Shown here in pieces: positions 4,798-28,658 of a DNA stretch of 32,000 bases. The stretch spans positions 1,260,001-1,292,000 of the forward strand of contig NC_013771.1 of assembly GCF_000025125.1 (NCBI RefSeq). Direction: 5' to 3'. This DNA comes from Candidatus Atelocyanobacterium thalassa isolate ALOHA (GTDB taxonomy: Bacteria > Cyanobacteriota > Cyanobacteriia > Cyanobacteriales > Microcystaceae). The notes beneath the pieces were generated by a model, which ran no database searches, was not told where the DNA came from, and saw only the letters and a list, made by a program, of their open reading frames with translations. The translations under genes were made by a program, and so were the position numbers. Position 1 is the first letter of the stretch. Each line of letters begins with the position of its first letter.

Positions 4798-5201
4798 AAG
4801 TATAGTGATTTTTTATATTGTCTAAGAAATTACATTAATAACCAGAATATTATTAATTCAATTGCGGTTTTAAATATAAATTAATAAAAAAGAGAAGATT
4901 TACGTTTTTGAAAGTGGTTAATTAATTATTATTTAAAACTATTTACACATTAAAATACATACTTTACTTAATCTATAGACTTGATTATATATTTATATTC
5001 AGGCTTGGTATTTGAATTCTTATTATTTTGTAGAATTTAAACTAATACTTATTAGAGTTGTTATGGTTTTTTATTTAACGAATAAATTACTTGAAACATT
5101 AAATATTATTTATTACATGTAATCATGTTATTTTAACAGTTGAAAACTAACTTTTAAAAAATAAAGATTAACAACTAAATTAGAAGATTAGTAATATTCA
5201 A

Positions 5202-5732
5202 TCAAGAGTTAGAACTAGAAGATAAAACATTTGCAACTTCTACTTCATTATTTATATCATCAGCAAAATTACTAACTTTAAAACAATTAGGTGTAAACAA
5301 GAAAATACTTTCACCAATACGCTCTTGATATCCTTCAATAGCGTACGTTCCTCCAGCAACAAAATCTACAGCTCTTTGTCCTTCTTCTGATTCCATTGAA
5401 TTTAAATTAAGAACAACAGATTTCTGTTCTCGTAAAACTTCTATAACTTTAGGCATTTCATCAAATGATTTAGGCTCAACTACAACCACTTCTGCAATAT
5501 TGCTGATTCTAGACATTGCAACAACATTATCTTGATGATTTTTAAAATTCTTTTTAGTGGCAATACGAGATTCCTTTGATTTTAACCAAGGATGTACTTC
5601 ATTGTCACTGGAAATATTTTTTTTATTTGATTCTTTTAACTCAAGATTAGAATTTTCATTAACTTCCATGTAATCGGAATCATCATCAAAACATTCTGCC
5701 ATAGACCAACGTTTTAATCTTTCTAAAATCAT
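5202..5732 (-). CDS. sepF: Cell division protein SepF
   Basis: C-terminal SepF/DUF552 core: [68 protein letters not shown] prefer ATG at 5732 (MILERLKRW) over the TTG at 5783 used by the track. Confidence 0.8.
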
Positions 5733-6172
5733 TGTATATCTCACTAGTTTGCAAGTATTTACGGAAAAGTGATTAAACACCAAAACGCTATTTAGTATCT
5801 TCTAAATTCGAAGAAAAATTCTTTTAACTTCTAGAACTTTTATACAATATTCTAAAATTTCTTTTCAATCTAGAATAAAGAACTATAGATTATGGTATCT
5901 AAAAGATCTTTTATGATTGTCGTCATGATACTCTAATATGTTCCCGTTATATTTCAAGAAACATACTTGATTTTTTATAAAGGTTAATTTTTTCTTTTAA
6001 AAATTTATCAACTTTTTACTTATCACATATCCAAGTAAATAAATATGATGCAATAATTTACGGATTTCTTTTACTTTTACTCCCTAATTAAAATTAAATC
6101 TATACTGAAAATAAGAATTTAAATATAGTAAATCATTAAATTTTTTAATTATTAGAAAGTATTTATTTATGT

Positions 6173-7822
6173 TTATCTTAGTCTTCCTGAACGTAGAATA
6201 CTAATAATTAGCCATACTCCTAATATACTTGCTGAAGTAAATAAAACACTGCTTATTATAGATAATTGCTGAGTTGAAGAACCAACAGAAATGATTGCGG
6301 CTCCCATTATTAAAGATCCTAAAACTATACTAAATGAAAGTCTATTTGCTGAAGCATCAATACTACGTCTCAAAGGTTCTAATTCTCTTAATTTTATATT
6401 CCAGTTAAAAGTCTCTGAGGATAATCGATCTAATAAAGTTTCTATTCTTCGAGGAGTCTTCAAGGAAATAGATTTCAAATCTAGGATTGTTCTTAGTCCC
6501 GTTTGTAGAGGTTTATCTCCCACGAGTTGACGATAAAATAAACTAGTCATTAATGGGTTTATTTCATCAAAAAGATTGAAAGATGGGTTAAACTGTCTTG
6601 CTGTACCTTCTAGATTCCCTAAACATTTTGCGTATAATCCTAAATTTCCTGGAATTGTTAATTTATTTTTGCGTGCAATTTGTAATATTTCATATACAAC
6701 TTCGCTTAGATTAAATTGAGAAAGATTTAAATTATAGTATTTCTTTAATATTTTTTTATAATCATTTTGTAACTTTAGCAGATTATCTACTTTATCTGAT
6801 TCTGATAGCTTAAATGTTAATTGAGCACATCCTTGAGCATCTAAATCAAAAATTGCTAATAATAATTCTATTAATATTTTTTGTGTTTGTGGATCAATTT
6901 TACCTACCATTCCACAATCAATAATAGCTATCCTACCGTCATTTAAATAAAATAAATTACCAGGATGAGGATCTGCATGGAAGAATCCATCAACATAAAT
7001 TTGTTGAAAGAAAGCCCTAAACAGTAAGGTTGTAATCTCTTTTCGTTTTTCCTTAGCAGATTTAATAGCTTTAGGAATATTTAAATCAGCTTCTAAAATT
7101 GGTTTTCCATATAACCATTCTAAAACTAAGATTTTTTCTGTCGTTATTTCCCAATATACTCTGGGTATTAGTATATTATGAGCATCAAACCAGAGGCTTG
7201 AAGATAAATTATTGCGAATAGTATCTGTATAGCTTGCTTCTTTTGTAAAATCTAATTCAGATTTAATAGCTTCACAAAATTCATCAGCAAGCTGTACGAT
7301 ATCATAATTTCTCCCAAATTCTGTGAGTGAGACTAATTCGGCAATTCCTTTGATTAAATTGATATCTTGTTGTACTATCTTGTCAATATTCGGACGTTGA
7401 ACTTTAATAGCCACTTCTTCTCCATTAAGAAGAATTCCACGATGAATTTGTCCAATAGAACCAGCTGCAATGGGTTTCTTCTCAATATTACTAAATATAG
7501 CTTTTATAGGTTTTGATAATTGCTCATTTAAAAGAGCTTCAATTTCGCTCCAAGGAACTGAAGAAACATTAGACTGCAAAGCAGTTAGAGCTTTAATATA
7601 ACTAGGAGAGAGAATATCAGGACGTGTACTTAAAAGCTGTCCTAATTTCACATAAAAAGGACCTAGTTCTATTAATATATTTCTCAAAACCTCTGGGGTG
7701 GGAATTTGAGGGTTTTCTGTTTTACCAGCTGTTAATAATCCTCTCATATATTCCCAGCCGTTGCTAAGTAAGACTTCAAGAATCTCTCGTTGACGAGCAC
7801 TAGTTTGAGTCAAAGAAAACAT
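6173..7822 (-). CDS. ABC1/UbiB-family atypical kinase with a C-terminal membrane anchor
   Basis: IAAGSIGQIHRG, VAIKVQRP, FHADPHPGN and IDCGMVG, plus two hydrophobic C-terminal segments. Confidence 0.85.
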   Translation of the reverse strand: MFSLTQTSARQREILEVLLSNGWEYMRGLLTAGKTENPQIPTPEVLRNILIELGPFYVKLGQLLSTRPDILSPSYIKALTALQSNVSSVPWSEIEALLNEQLSKPIKAIFSNIEKKPIAAGSIGQIHRGILLNGEEVAIKVQRPNIDKIVQQDINLIKGIAELVSLTEFGRNYDIVQLADEFCEAIKSELDFTKEASYTDTIRNNLSSSLWFDAHNILIPRVYWEITTEKILVLEWLYGKPILEADLNIPKAIKSAKEKRKEITTLLFRAFFQQIYVDGFFHADPHPGNLFYLNDGRIAIIDCGMVGKIDPQTQKILIELLLAIFDLDAQGCAQLTFKLSESDKVDNLLKLQNDYKKILKKYYNLNLSQFNLSEVVYEILQIARKNKLTIPGNLGLYAKCLGNLEGTARQFNPSFNLFDEINPLMTSLFYRQLVGDKPLQTGLRTILDLKSISLKTPRRIETLLDRLSSETFNWNIKLRELEPLRRSIDASANRLSFSIVLGSLIMGAAIISVGSSTQQLSIISSVLFTSASILGVWLIISILRSGRLR

Positions 7823-11745: not shown

Positions 11746-12267
11746 ATGTCAACATTACGTTCTATAGTAATAAATCAAGAAAAAACTGACGATATTTATG
11801 AAATATATCTTTTAGAACCTACAAGATATATTTTAAATAATTATTCTCAGTTATTTGCTAGTTGGGGTAAATCTCCTCATTCATTAATAATAGTTTTATT
11901 ATATTCTACAATACCTTTGAATAATAACTGTGCGCGAGTTAGGAGAGAAAAAAATAGATTAAAAGAAAATTTCTTAAGACTAGGAAAAACTATCCAATTA
12001 ACTTTACAGAAGAAGCAATACTTGGTTGAAATTATAGATCCTCAAGATGGAAAACCACTCAACTCAACTTCTGATCAGATTTTTTTAGATAGTGTAGCAG
12101 TTGTTCATAAGTCATTGATGATGCACTATATATCTTTCGGAAAATGTAAGCTACTACACCATCCATTCCAAAAAACAAGTATTTATCCAGGCTTAATGAT
12201 AACAAATGCTAAAACTGAAAGAATTAGAGATTTGATAACAGCAAAAATCGTTTCAGATTCAAAATAA
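11746..12267 (+). CDS. Hypothetical protein (173 aa); faint resemblance to MMADHC-like proteins that I cannot substantiate
   Basis: A clean 173-codon ORF in AT-rich DNA. I recognise no catalytic motif. Confidence 0.5.
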   Translation: MSTLRSIVINQEKTDDIYEIYLLEPTRYILNNYSQLFASWGKSPHSLIIVLLYSTIPLNNNCARVRREKNRLKENFLRLGKTIQLTLQKKQYLVEIIDPQDGKPLNSTSDQIFLDSVAVVHKSLMMHYISFGKCKLLHHPFQKTSIYPGLMITNAKTERIRDLITAKIVSDSK

Positions 12268-13409: not shown

Positions 13410-13916
13410 TTAACGAATACGGGAATATGCAGCTTCAGAAATAGTAGGAATTTCTGCATATCGGCCTAATGTACTTTGGAACATAGAATAATAAGAAGCA
13501 ATAAGACCGCCTAGAAAGATAAGACTGTAAAAAGTTTCTATCAACAATCCACTGTGTCCTAAAGCAGGTATTAAAACATATTGCATTACGATTCTTGCTA
13601 AAGCTAATGAAATTGATATGAGAATAGATTGCATTGTGTTGTAACGAATAAAATGACTAATTTTTTCGTTTCTGACAACTGCTGCAAAAAGTATAATAAA
13701 TACTGCGAAGCTAGCAAAGCTACCCAGAGGTCCCAATAAAGATGCGATAAGTCCATAGCTTAATTCTATTGGTAAAGCAGGGAAGCAGAAAAAGCCAAAG
13801 GCAGGAAACTGTTGTAAAAGAAAGCTTCCAAAAAATAAAGTATCATAAATAGCAAAACAATAAACTATGATTCCAAAAATGCGATCTGGTATACTTACTG
13901 ATCCACGCCACGTCAT
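13410..13916 (-). CDS. Tic20-like inner-membrane protein (cyanobacterial homologue of the chloroplast Tic20 family)
   Basis: Four predicted hydrophobic helices and an N-terminus MTWRGSVSIPDRIFGIIVY typical of cyanobacterial Tic20-like proteins. AAGGAG lies 8 nt upstream of ATG 13916, so I reject the GTG at 13955 used by the track. Confidence 0.65.
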   Translation of the reverse strand: MTWRGSVSIPDRIFGIIVYCFAIYDTLFFGSFLLQQFPAFGFFCFPALPIELSYGLIASLLGPLGSFASFAVFIILFAAVVRNEKISHFIRYNTMQSILISISLALARIVMQYVLIPALGHSGLLIETFYSLIFLGGLIASYYSMFQSTLGRYAEIPTISEAAYSRIR

Positions 13917-14059
13917 TGTTAATACTCCTTTATTACAGAAAAGATTAAACAACACTAATGTACAACATTTATTAAAAATAATATTATCTAGTTTTAATCT
14001 ATATAAATTTACCTACAAGTTTTTTTAGAATAATGATTAGTATTGTAGAATTTATAAAT

Positions 14060-25234: not shown

Positions 25235-25927
25235 TTGAAGTCCTTAAATTTTTTAAGTATTCTTCGTAGAGAGACCCGTCAATTTGCAGTTATTGGATTA
25301 GGACGCTTTGGGCGTTCAGTATGCAGAAACCTTCATAAATTAGGCTACGAAGTATTAGGAACAGACATAAAAGAATCTTTAGTGTCTCAAGTTTTAACTG
25401 AGAACATTGCTTCAAGTGCCATCAAACTAGATTCAACTAAGCCTAATGCTCTAAAAGAGGCAGGTATTTTTGAATTTGATACTGTTATTATTGCTATTGG
25501 AAATTATTTGGAAGAGAGTATTGTTACTGCTTTAAATATTAAAGAAGGAGGTGTGAAATACGTAATTGCCAAAGCCTCTTCTGATGTTCATGGCAAACTT
25601 TTGCAAAAAGTTGGGGCTGATTTAGTTGTATATCCCGAATATCAAGCTGGGTGTGACTTAGTTCATTTACTCACGCAAAATCCTAGAATCATAGAAAGAT
25701 TCGAACTTGATCCTGATCATAGTATTGTAGAAACTCGTATTCCGCAAGAATTCCACGGAATAGCTATTGAAGAACTAAAACTTAGAAGCCGTTATGATAT
25801 AAGCGTACTAGCTGTTGGTAATGATGATAAGTTTAAAATTAATCCTTCACCTCAGGAGAAATTAAATAAAAATTTATCAATGGTTGTTATTGGTTCTAAC
25901 AAAGCTATTCAAAAACTACCTCTATAA
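25235..25927 (+). CDS. ktrA: KtrA/TrkA-type K+ uptake regulatory subunit (RCK N and C domains)
   Basis: Rossmann motif VIGLGRFGRSV. 230 aa. TTG start with GGTGAGG 7 nt upstream. Confidence 0.8.
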   Translation: MKSLNFLSILRRETRQFAVIGLGRFGRSVCRNLHKLGYEVLGTDIKESLVSQVLTENIASSAIKLDSTKPNALKEAGIFEFDTVIIAIGNYLEESIVTALNIKEGGVKYVIAKASSDVHGKLLQKVGADLVVYPEYQAGCDLVHLLTQNPRIIERFELDPDHSIVETRIPQEFHGIAIEELKLRSRYDISVLAVGNDDKFKINPSPQEKLNKNLSMVVIGSNKAIQKLPL

Positions 25928-25928
25928 A

Positions 25929-26483
25929 TTAAGCATCAGTAAGAATGTTATTATTTTTAACTGATGTGGAGTTTAAAAGAAATAGAGATGCACGAGACAT
26001 CGCTTCATGAGATAAATTCATTTTAGTTAAAGTTATCAAACCTTCCTGAATAAACATATCTCGTATCAAACTTTTATTAACTTTATTAAATTCCGTTTCA
26101 TAAAAAACTTCTTTAATTCCGGCAGAAATTATTAGTTTCAAACAAGATATACAAGGTTCCAAGGTTACGTAAATAGTAGAGTTATTTGTAGAAATTCTAT
26201 ATTTTGCTGCTTGTGCAATAGCATTTGCCTCTGCATGAACAGCACGTGAAGGCAAATTGCTAGAAGAAATACAGCTTTCAAGTCCTGGATAACAAACACC
26301 CTGACTTATACAGTGACTAGAGTTGGCAGGAGGACCATTGTACCCAGTAGATAAAACACGCTTATCTTTTACAATAACGGCTCCTACTGGAAAGGCTAAA
26401 CAAGTAGATCTTGTAGCAGCTAACTTAGCCATCATCATAAAATACTCGTTCCAAGTAGGTCTTTGACCTTTTATGTATGTCAT
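25929..26483 (-). CDS. Deoxycytidylate (dCMP) deaminase
   Basis: Zinc-binding HAEANAI and PCISCLKLI motifs. Size and layout of ComEB/dCMP deaminases. Confidence 0.85.
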   Translation of the reverse strand: MTYIKGQRPTWNEYFMMMAKLAATRSTCLAFPVGAVIVKDKRVLSTGYNGPPANSSHCISQGVCYPGLESCISSSNLPSRAVHAEANAIAQAAKYRISTNNSTIYVTLEPCISCLKLIISAGIKEVFYETEFNKVNKSLIRDMFIQEGLITLTKMNLSHEAMSRASLFLLNSTSVKNNNILTDA

Positions 26484-26514: not shown

Positions 26515-26946
26515 TTAAACTCCTGTTGAGCCGAATCCATCTGTGCCTCTAATTGAAGAACTTAAGGAATCTACCTCTTCAATTTCAACACGTATGATAG
26601 GCATGATAACCATTTGAGCAATTCTCATTCCTGGTAAAACTTTGAAAGAGATTGAACCATGATTAATCAGAACTACTCCAATCTCTCCACGATATCCTTC
26701 ATCAATAGTTCCTGGAGTATTTAAAACGGTAATTTGATGCTTTAAAGCTAAACCACTTCTTGGACGAATTTGTGCTTCTGTATTAGGAGGTAGTTCAATA
26801 GAGATACCAGTCTTAATTAGTTTACTTTCATAAGATTTAATTTCTACTTCTTCTATAGATATTAAATCCATTCCTGAATCTCCATAGTGCTCATATCGTG
26901 GAATAACCGCAGAGCTCTTTAGCTTTACTATTTTTAACTTATTCAT
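26515..26946 (-). CDS. dut: dUTP diphosphatase (trimeric dUTPase)
   Basis: [26 protein letters not shown] and GFGSTG, which are dUTPase motifs 1-5. Confidence 0.9.
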
Positions 26947-27083: not shown

Positions 27084-27111
27084 ATTATATTTTGACATCA
27101 ATATTTGTCAA
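27084..27111 (-). promoter_or_regulatory. Consensus sigma70-type promoter (TTGACA, 16 nt, TATAAT) between the TS-like gene and dut
   Basis: The minus strand reads TTGACA (27111-27106), a 16-nt spacer, then TATAAT (27089-27084), about 135 nt upstream of the dut ATG. The -35 is half of an inverted repeat, ttgaca-N8-tgtcaa. Confidence 0.35.
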
Positions 27112-27143: not shown

Positions 27144-28658
27144 CTAACTTTTAACTGTTAAGGGTTTATCTTGCTGATAATGATAAGATTTGTCCTTTAA
27201 ACAAATTTCTGCCTTTTGTAATTCTGAGCCCAAGTACATAGCATGTTTAATTCCAATACCAGGAGAATCCTCTGCAATTTTGTTATAGATTTTCCTTGCA
27301 GATTTACCAAAGTAACAATTTACAATTTCTCCTGAACCTGGGGTAATATGCTCAACAAATATTTGATTATTTTTAATAACAATTAAATAGCTACCACTAG
27401 GATCAGCATATTTTTTTTCTCGACATATTGTTTCGTATTCTGCATCTACTATTTTATCTGCATATTCCCAACAATCGTTATATATATGAGCGCTTTGGCT
27501 AACAGTCACTAATGGACCAATTTTCAACTTCTGATTAATTCGATTTTGTATTTCTCTCATAATATGTATTTGCAATGCCCTTAGGCCCATTGCATTTGAA
27601 GGCCATGCGGAAAACATATCATTACTACGAAACGTAGCTGTTAAAGATAATTCATCATCAATAGTTCTTATCCAAATATGATTTAGGCATGGAGGGCTGT
27701 CATTATTATCATAATCATTAACATCCCAGAGAGACATGACAGCTCTGGAAGAATTAATATCAGAAACTAGTAGATCAATAACTTGTTGGATTTGATCTTT
27801 TTTAAACCAAGATCTTAATCTTTGGCCATATGTATATTTGATCCCTTCTCGTTGTGAAGAATCATCAAGAATTTGGGATATATAGTCGTTGATAAATTCT
27901 CTTCTTATAGGAAGATAATTGGGTTCAGGAAAATAGAAATCTAAGGGTTCATCAGTAACGACAGCTACAATATTGATTAGTTCTTGCCATTTTCCATATT
28001 CAGTTGGCCTAACTCTTCCAGTTGTTTTAATACGATGTAATATCCTAACCCAGGTTTCTGCAATTGTAGAACCTTCTATTCGATGACAATATTTAGTTCC
28101 AGGACGTATTTTGGAACTAGTTTCCGTAAAAGGGAAAATCAGGGGATTACTCCAAGATTTTTTTTTCTCTTTTTTATTTAGTTCTTTGACATGATCAACT
28201 ACTTTAGAAATTGATTCAACTTCTCTATAAACTATAGATTCGCGAATTAACTCTAATACCTCAGCAGGAATTTCTATATCTATATACCCAAGAACATTAG
28301 AATTAATAATCCATACATCTTTCCCTATATGATCAACTCCTGCCCTGAAACCTTTAGACAAGAAATCTAATAGACATTGACATCCTCCTGCGTTTTGATC
28401 TTCTTTCGTTGACTGCAGTATAACGAGCGAAGCTACATGAGGATTTGCTAATAGGTTTCTTATTAAAGGGCTAATACCTCTGGTTGGACTATATAAGTTT
28501 CCAATAACTGCATATTCTTTTGATGTTAAATATCTTGCAACTGATTCTTTTACTGTCCATCCAGTAATGATAGCTGTTTGTCCATAACCACAAATTAATT
28601 GGTTAGCTTTGTAATGAGGATCATAATTAAATAAATAGTTTGATGGTGTAATCGTCAT
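27144..28658 (-). CDS. Thymidylate synthase-like three-domain protein: MtrA-like N-domain + ThyA-fold core + DUF4346-like C-domain
   Basis: Core motifs by my numbering: SSRAVMSLWD (res 303-312), SPPCLNH (Cys324), FRSNDMF (Arg344/Asp347), WPSNAMG (Asn355) and SAHIYND (His391/Tyr393). These parallel ThyA motifs RR..S.WNP, PPCH, QRS.D, PFNIA and H.Y. The N-terminus (AIITGWT...YAVIGNLYSPTRGISPLIRNLLANPHVASLVIL) resembles MtrA-like domains. The C-terminus is HAMYLGSELQKAE. Confidence 0.7.
   Translation of the reverse strand: MTITPSNYLFNYDPHYKANQLICGYGQTAIITGWTVKESVARYLTSKEYAVIGNLYSPTRGISPLIRNLLANPHVASLVILQSTKEDQNAGGCQCLLDFLSKGFRAGVDHIGKDVWIINSNVLGYIDIEIPAEVLELIRESIVYREVESISKVVDHVKELNKKEKKKSWSNPLIFPFTETSSKIRPGTKYCHRIEGSTIAETWVRILHRIKTTGRVRPTEYGKWQELINIVAVVTDEPLDFYFPEPNYLPIRREFINDYISQILDDSSQREGIKYTYGQRLRSWFKKDQIQQVIDLLVSDINSSRAVMSLWDVNDYDNNDSPPCLNHIWIRTIDDELSLTATFRSNDMFSAWPSNAMGLRALQIHIMREIQNRINQKLKIGPLVTVSQSAHIYNDCWEYADKIVDAEYETICREKKYADPSGSYLIVIKNNQIFVEHITPGSGEIVNCYFGKSARKIYNKIAEDSPGIGIKHAMYLGSELQKAEICLKDKSYHYQQDKPLTVKS

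Follow-up and report, generated by a model that had tools for sequence, protein, structure and literature searches.

A 504-amino-acid protein that appears to be a thymidylate synthase of non-canonical architecture is encoded in the genome of Candidatus Atelocyanobacterium thalassa isolate ALOHA, a cyanobacterium of the UCYN-A lineage. The gene lies at positions 27144–28658 on the reverse strand of a 32,000-nucleotide stretch of contig NC_013771.1 (positions 1,260,001–1,292,000), here called the window, in which the guanine-plus-cytosine content is ~30%. The open reading frame (ORF) starts with ATG and ends with a stop codon at 27144–27146. From the N-terminus onward, the protein consists of an MtrA-fold (Rossmann-like) domain (residues 1–165; 28164–28658), a linker (residues 166–193; 28080–28163), an archaeal-type ThyA catalytic core (residues 194–410; 27429–28079) and a PterinBD-DUF4346 domain (residues 411–504; 27147–27428). 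The linker is only weakly conserved, showing the lowest mean identity of any segment (22%), and its residues 179–191 have a predicted local distance difference test (pLDDT) score below 50 in the structural model described below. A preliminary description of this stretch, made from the sequence alone, had reported the same ORF and had read it as an MtrA-like, a ThyA-fold and a DUF4346-like region in this order; the ORF list and the Pfam, NCBIfam and family-profile matches bear out both the ORF and the three-domain layout.

The window protein is 100% identical to cluster P0001 in a protein cluster search. Its orthologue in the metagenome-assembled genome (MAG) of UCYN-A4 (“Candidatus Atelocyanobacterium thalassae”) shares 85% identity and is found in the same gene order, and the orthologues of Crocosphaera and of the diatom spheroid-body endosymbionts come next, with 64–68% identity. 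When the gene is compared with that of UCYN-A4, the ratio of nonsynonymous to synonymous substitution rates is 0.12 for the whole gene, and 0.155, 0.110 and 0.100 for the N-terminal domain, the core and the DUF4346 domain, respectively. Purifying selection acts on each of the three domains, and conservation of the two added ones is as strong as that of the core. The gene has been kept both in the reduced genome of UCYN-A and in the genomes of the diatom spheroid bodies.

The core was compared with known thymidylate synthases at the level of sequence families, residues and fold. Residues 270–405 match the Pfam family Thymidylat_synt (PF00303) with an E value of 1.7e-16 and 60.6 bits, above the family cutoff of 24.3, and the best NCBIfam model is TIGR03283 (“thy_syn_methano”), of which positions 3–199 of 201 are covered by residues 194–398 (E value 1.2e-39). 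A profile alignment with hhalign to Escherichia coli ThyA gave a probability of 98% and ~25% identity over 127 aligned columns. In this alignment, the E. coli residues Tyr94, Arg127, the nucleophile Cys146, Arg166-Ser167-x-Asp169, Asn177 and His207-x-Tyr209 correspond to Tyr277, Arg305, Cys324, Arg344-Ser345-x-Asp347, Asn355 and His391-x-Tyr393, and the codons of Cys324 (27687–27689) and Asn355 (27594–27596) were verified on the reverse strand. With the exception of Arg305, these residues vary little or not at all among 30 cyanobacterial sequences, 33 diverse sequences with identities down to 29%, and 80 viral sequences (here and below, viral counts refer to the 80 contigs kept of 119 found in IMG/VR, and counts of cyanobacterial loci to the 80 best-ranked of 526 GTDB species genomes). 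In enzymes of the ThyA fold, Asn at position 177 selects deoxyuridine monophosphate (dUMP), and Asp goes with enzymes that act on deoxycytidine monophosphate (dCMP). Asn355 and Cys324 are invariant in the 33 diverse and 80 viral sequences, and the Asp that marks dCMP enzymes occurs in none of them, in agreement with the earlier proposal that Asn355 is the dUMP selector.

The folate-binding elements of the canonical enzyme are not retained. In canonical ThyA, Trp80, Trp83, Phe176 and the C-terminal tail clamp the folate and close over it. At the three former positions, the profile alignment places Ser261, Leu264 and Ser354, and it ends at E. coli residue 220 of 264, leaving the folate-closing tail (residues 221–264) without a counterpart; in sequence order, the place of this tail is taken by DUF4346. 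The preliminary description had held that every landmark of the ThyA active site is kept. This is correct for the Cys, Arg-Ser-x-Asp, Asn and His-x-Tyr motifs and for Tyr94, and incorrect for Trp80, Trp83, Phe176 and the C-terminal 45 residues. The closest known relative of the core is the archaeal short ThyA described by TIGR03283, the best model for this region, which is likewise a minimal core that lacks the C-terminal segment of the canonical enzyme; its 201 model positions, however, comprise the core only, whereas here the core is flanked by the MtrA-like and DUF4346 domains and the host is a folate-using cyanobacterium. The canonical bacterial enzyme (E. coli ThyA, EC 2.1.1.45) agrees with the UCYN-A protein in fold and in the catalytic set of Cys146, Arg166, Ser167, Asp169, Asn177, His207, Tyr209 and Tyr94; the UCYN-A protein has in addition ~165 residues at the N-terminus and 94 at the C-terminus.

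The fold of the core was also examined by structure prediction. An AlphaFold model from the single sequence had a pLDDT of 34 and was unusable; an alignment-based model with a pLDDT of 75.5 and a predicted template modelling (pTM) score of 0.50 was used instead. In Foldseek searches of this model against the PDB, ThyA-fold structures were the top matches (E value ~1e-11, probability 1.00), and all structural matches in the PDB and in BFVD were of the ThyA fold, with no full-length match in BFVD.

The C-terminal domain matches PterinBD-DUF4346 (PF14251) at residues 419–497 (E value 2.1e-22; model positions 2–86 of 86) with 80.1 bits, above the gathering score of 29.6, as its earlier assignment to DUF4346 had anticipated. 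Within it, Asp419, Gly422, His472, Glu479 and Tyr494 are invariant across the family. The C-terminus also matches the ends of two NCBIfam models, TIGR00284 (E value 8e-7), which represents an archaeal dihydropteroate-synthase-like protein, and NF002128 (E value 7e-12), which represents long MtrA-like proteins and matches the N-terminal domain as well. The MtrA-like and DUF4346 domains therefore look like a recurrent module of pterin-dependent proteins. The proteins of TIGR00284 and NF002128 share DUF4346 at the C-terminus and differ in the catalytic partner, which here is a ThyA core placed between the two halves of the module. Binding of a pterin by DUF4346 is implied by the Pfam name, and the comparisons made here point to its association with pterin-dependent partners; a profile search for a solved structure of the domain returned none, even at an E value of 10.

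The relationship of the N-terminal domain to MtrA, the corrinoid subunit of the methanogen methyl-tetrahydromethanopterin:coenzyme M methyltransferase, is more distant. In the window protein, only a weak match to the MtrA subfamily was obtained with NCBIfam (residues 45–143, E value 1.9e-6), and residues 1–181 taken alone gave no Pfam match, the window protein being below detection. A profile of 24 diverse N-terminal domains, in turn, matches the MtrA structures 8q3v, 5laa and 5l8x with E values of 1.8e-7 to 6e-5. Eight of the 24 domains match Pfam MtrA (PF04208) singly (best E value 1.2e-12), and distant members of the family match NCBIfam mtrA with an E value of 2e-16 and have precomputed PF04208 matches. 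Homology of this domain to MtrA is established by these comparisons, and the resemblance noted in the preliminary description for ~165 N-terminal residues is confirmed by the family profile. The two proteins share the Rossmann-like fold, the motif “G..G(I/L)..LI.NL..NP.I..L” and part of the “YI(E/D)..IP” meander segment; Trp34 and Asn72 are invariant in the N-terminal domain. The MtrA matches break off inside the soluble domain, at position 131 of 186 in the model and at residue ~150 of 238 in the structure chain, and what follows is the ThyA core, not the C-terminal membrane anchor of MtrA. Cobalamin is bound in MtrA by His84, the axial cobalt ligand, which in turn forms a hydrogen bond with Glu54 (Wagner et al., PMC4915002). 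In the alignments, Gln88 takes the position of His84 (relatives have Lys, Glu or a gap there) and Pro58 that of Glu54; the His84/Glu54 dyad is absent from every member examined, including those nearest to MtrA. The domain thus lacks the defining ligand of the corrinoid-binding family, and corrinoid chemistry is unlikely. Unlike MtrA, the protein also has no mtr partner genes in the window and is fused to a thymidylate synthase.

The family has many members and is widely distributed. It comprises more than 1,371 clusters at the 90% identity level, of which nearly all have ~500 amino acids and most carry the name “thymidylate synthase”; at the 50% level, an E value of 1e-30 is passed by 359 clusters, with full-length matches down to ~30% identity. 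Relatives were found in the 526 GTDB species genomes, mostly cyanobacteria, and the 80 best-ranked carry cyanobacterial labels, except for a few MAGs without classification and two genomes labelled otherwise; some of the distant members belong to metagenome lineages, and one to a Nanoarchaeia MAG. NCBI and JGI label the family as thymidylate synthase in hundreds of genomes. The gene is thus already catalogued and named in databases and is not itself a discovery; it is an uncharacterised variant of a known enzyme. Full-length three-domain relatives with 42–59% identity are present in the 119 IMG/VR contigs, many of which are 50–200 kb long, whereas the three-domain form was not found in the cultured phages of INPHARED. 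The viral copies, located at about positions 5001–6500 in most of the 80 loci, keep every catalytic residue and the invariant residues of DUF4346, apart from the variation at Arg305 discussed below. Their commonest neighbours are the large subunit of ribonucleotide reductase in 43 loci, a RusA-like resolvase in 35 and the small subunit of ribonucleotide reductase in 24, along with many ORFans. In the COG table for 31 cyanobacteria, ThyX is assigned to 23 genomes and ThyA to 8 (PMC5954106), which fits the presence of one or the other per genome. The SEED folate table (2007) covered only cyanobacteria of the ThyX type (Anabaena, Nostoc, Trichodesmium and Synechocystis).

Two genes of nucleotide metabolism follow the thymidylate synthase gene on the same strand, as the preliminary description had reported and as the ORF list, Pfam and NCBIfam confirm. 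The first, dut, encodes a dUTP diphosphatase of 143 amino acids (26515–26946, reverse strand; PF00692, E value 2e-29; NF001862, 181 bits against a cutoff of 103), and the second encodes a ComEB-like dCMP deaminase of 184 amino acids (25929–26483, reverse strand; PF00383, E value 9e-29). The thymidylate synthase gene is separated from dut by a 197-nucleotide spacer with a perfect sigma-70 consensus (TTGACA-16-TATAAT, 12 of 12 positions) at 27084–27111 on the reverse strand, so dut and the dCMP deaminase gene may form their own transcription unit, separate from the thymidylate synthase gene; the site was identified by pattern matching alone, and the region as a whole holds no more promoter-like sites than expected by chance. 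A riboswitch of Rfam was not detected. The window contains no thyX, no other thyA and no folA, and the rest of it is made up of cyanobacterial housekeeping genes. Among the 80 cyanobacterial loci, dut lies downstream of the gene in 22, and in 16 a dCMP deaminase gene does so on the same strand. Within 4 kb, the neighbours are dCTP deaminase (26 loci), dut (22), a DCD-like protein (18), dCMP deaminase (16) and thymidylate kinase (15), and at least one of these five is found in 58 of the 80 loci. The neighbourhoods of three non-cyanobacterial members gave no informative context.

Several further features were observed beside the gene in other genomes. The DCD-like neighbour of 18 loci is a second dCTP-deaminase-like protein of ~330 amino acids with a long C-terminal extension whose end looks hydrophobic. 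In a Chroococcidiopsis MAG, the dCTP deaminase beside the gene carries an intein inside its DCD domain (locus L044, 8475–10193, reverse strand; Intein_splicing, E value 4e-17). A homologue of the corrinoid adenosyltransferases CobA/CobO/BtuR is encoded near the gene in 21 of the 80 loci, and in a syntenic UCYN-A contig cobU is found ~5 kb away. In all 21 loci the CobO-like gene occurs together with the gene for RNase PH, and it is therefore read as probably part of a synteny block with RNase PH, not as a functional linkage.

From the domain identities, the residue conservation, the gene context and the purifying selection, we infer an enzymatic activity and a role for the accessory domains. 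The protein is probably the only thymidylate synthase of UCYN-A. In the proposed mechanism, dUMP supplied by the downstream dut and dCMP deaminase would be converted to deoxythymidine monophosphate (dTMP) by the minimal archaeal-type core (residues ~194–410), with Cys324 attacking C6 of dUMP and with both the carbon and the hydride derived from methylene-tetrahydrofolate. The lost folate clamp (Trp80, Trp83, Phe176, the tail and Arg126) would be replaced by the two added domains, which would bind or close over the pterin cofactor, DUF4346 foremost through its invariant Asp, His, Glu and Tyr. We assign a probability of roughly 0.6 to this interpretation as a whole, in which the archaeal-type core makes dTMP and the added domains take over cofactor binding and closure. 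Its two parts differ in strength. Synthesis of dTMP is likely, because the catalytic and dUMP-selector residues are kept and the neighbours are dUMP suppliers and a dTMP kinase; an ordinary reaction carried out by an unusual protein is the most economical reading. Non-canonical folate handling through the extra domains is plausible, and participation of these domains in cofactor binding is proposed tentatively, on account of the lost clamp, the invariant Asp, His, Glu and Tyr of DUF4346, the recurrence of this domain on other pterin-dependent proteins, and the conservation of the added domains at the same level as the core.

Several observations weigh against this interpretation. The TIGR03283 match, at 136 bits, falls short of the cutoff of 174.55 bits that the equivalog rule of this model demands. 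The “Arg pair” of the preliminary description proved to be a single Arg, Arg305, which corresponds to Arg127, and the position of E. coli Arg126 is occupied by Ser304, so that one of the four phosphate-binding arginines is gone. Arg305 itself (27744–27746) is replaced by Ser in 70 of the 80 viral copies and is missing from the Rippkaea and Aphanothece copies, which read “DAASGVMSLWD”. Of the other phosphate-binding arginines, Arg166 is kept as Arg344, and the equivalent of Arg21, possibly Arg217, was not assigned by the alignment, nor was that of Glu58. Arg126 and Arg127 of canonical ThyA are contributed by the partner subunit, and, as this pair is not conserved in the family, phosphate binding by the partner subunit may differ from that of the canonical enzyme. 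The inter-domain geometry of the AlphaFold model is uncertain at a pTM of 0.50, and no contact between DUF4346 and the active site can be read from it. In addition, enzyme data for any member were not found in the literature: a full-text search covering the family and its archaeal relatives returned nothing on the fusion, on DUF4346, or on the structure or activity of a member, in line with the preliminary statement that the fusion is not known to have been characterised biochemically.

The alternative that survives best retains the thymidylate synthase and places the added domains away from the cofactor, with a role in oligomerisation, stability or allosteric regulation, for example the sensing of nucleotide or folate pools. 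The MtrA-like domain has a generic Rossmann-like fold from which the known ligand residues of MtrA are absent, the model shows no confident packing between domains, and the poor conservation of the partner-subunit residues Arg126 and Arg127 hints at a changed quaternary arrangement, all of which would suit such a role. The core, however, lacks the folate-clamping residues and the tail, so a replacement is needed; moreover, the invariance of Asp419, His472, Glu479 and Tyr494 in DUF4346 is more typical of a ligand site than of a scaffold, and this domain accompanies other pterin enzymes. A purely structural or regulatory role is therefore considered unlikely, although it ranks ahead of the other alternatives.

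A bifunctional enzyme, in which the MtrA-like and DUF4346 domains form a hitherto unrecognised pterin-handling module that re-reduces in situ the dihydrofolate released by the core, independently of FolA, is improbable. Such an arrangement would resemble DHFR-TS of protists and plants, which provides a precedent for a thymidylate synthase fused to a folate-recycling partner and which is matched by Foldseek through its thymidylate synthase half. It would also agree with the Rossmann-like fold of the N-terminal domain and with the fusion of DUF4346 to the archaeal dihydropteroate-synthase-like protein, the product of which is a dihydropterin. A tblastn search with E. coli FolA found no FolA-like gene in the window or near the gene in the 80 cyanobacterial loci, which is weak evidence for this alternative; folA is seldom linked to thyA, and its absence nearby says little. 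Against it, no DHFR, FolM or flavin-reductase family was matched in Pfam or NCBIfam, and no dinucleotide-binding glycine motif was noted in the N-terminal domain; in contrast to DHFR-TS, no DHFR domain was matched. If this alternative were true, the protein would be a prokaryotic and phage analogue of DHFR-TS, and the presence of the module on the archaeal dihydropteroate-synthase-like protein would be accounted for.

The preliminary description had also suggested a product other than plain dTMP. This could be 5-hydroxymethyl-dUMP or a different pyrimidine modified at C5, of the kind made by phage hydroxymethylases. The non-canonical cofactor pocket, the frequency of the family in uncultured phages, and the structural neighbours of the model, which include MilA and the phage dCMP hydroxylase AfhB (target-normalised TM-score, a measure of structural similarity, 0.75), would be consistent with this possibility. 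On the other side, the catalytic residues, including Cys324 and Asn355, are fixed, the neighbours in cyanobacteria are dUMP suppliers and thymidylate kinase and those in phages ribonucleotide reductase, the COG counts of 23 ThyX and 8 ThyA fit a sole thymidylate synthase where ThyX is absent, and cyanobacterial DNA contains ordinary thymine. An unusual product is on these grounds slightly less probable still than the bifunctional enzyme. Least probable of all is a corrinoid-dependent reaction, in which a cobamide on the MtrA-like domain would deliver or relay the methyl group, an idea favoured by the homology to cobalamin-binding MtrA, the CobA/CobO/BtuR-like neighbour and the nearby cobU, and rejected, together with a corrinoid-linked form of the unusual one-carbon donor proposed at the outset, because the His84/Glu54 dyad is missing from every member examined, the CobO-like gene always accompanies that for RNase PH, and the core keeps the full set of residues for reductive methylation.

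Three other ORFs of the window were noted that are separate from this question. The TrkA gene (25235–25927, forward strand) shares 99% protein identity with its counterpart in the UCYN-A4 MAG (locus L002, 8720–9409), whereas the neighbouring genes share 81–86%, which reflects either unusually strong conservation or recent exchange. An ORF of 173 amino acids (11746–12267, forward strand) matches Pfam MMADHC (E value 7e-8), the family of the human methylmalonic aciduria and homocystinuria type D protein, and was unexpected in a reduced cyanobacterial genome. An ORF of 181 amino acids (13410–13955, reverse strand) matches Pfam TIC20, which contains Tic20-like proteins of chloroplast import (E value 2e-17), and is possibly of note in a lineage regarded as an organelle.

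Thymidylate synthase is among the best-studied of enzymes and is a major drug target. The form described here does without the textbook folate-clamping residues and carries two additional conserved domains, and it is apparently the working enzyme of UCYN-A, the nitrogen-fixing “nitroplast” lineage, as well as of the spheroid bodies of diatoms, of cyanobacterial species in the hundreds, among them bloom-formers such as Microcystis, and of a large set of uncultured phages. If it makes plain dTMP with an alternative clamp on the cofactor, the advance would be useful but incremental. The mode of cofactor binding, once known, would provide a function for DUF4346 and for the non-corrinoid branch of the MtrA fold, and would shed light on the archaeal-type thymidylate synthases and on the need for a separate dihydrofolate reductase.

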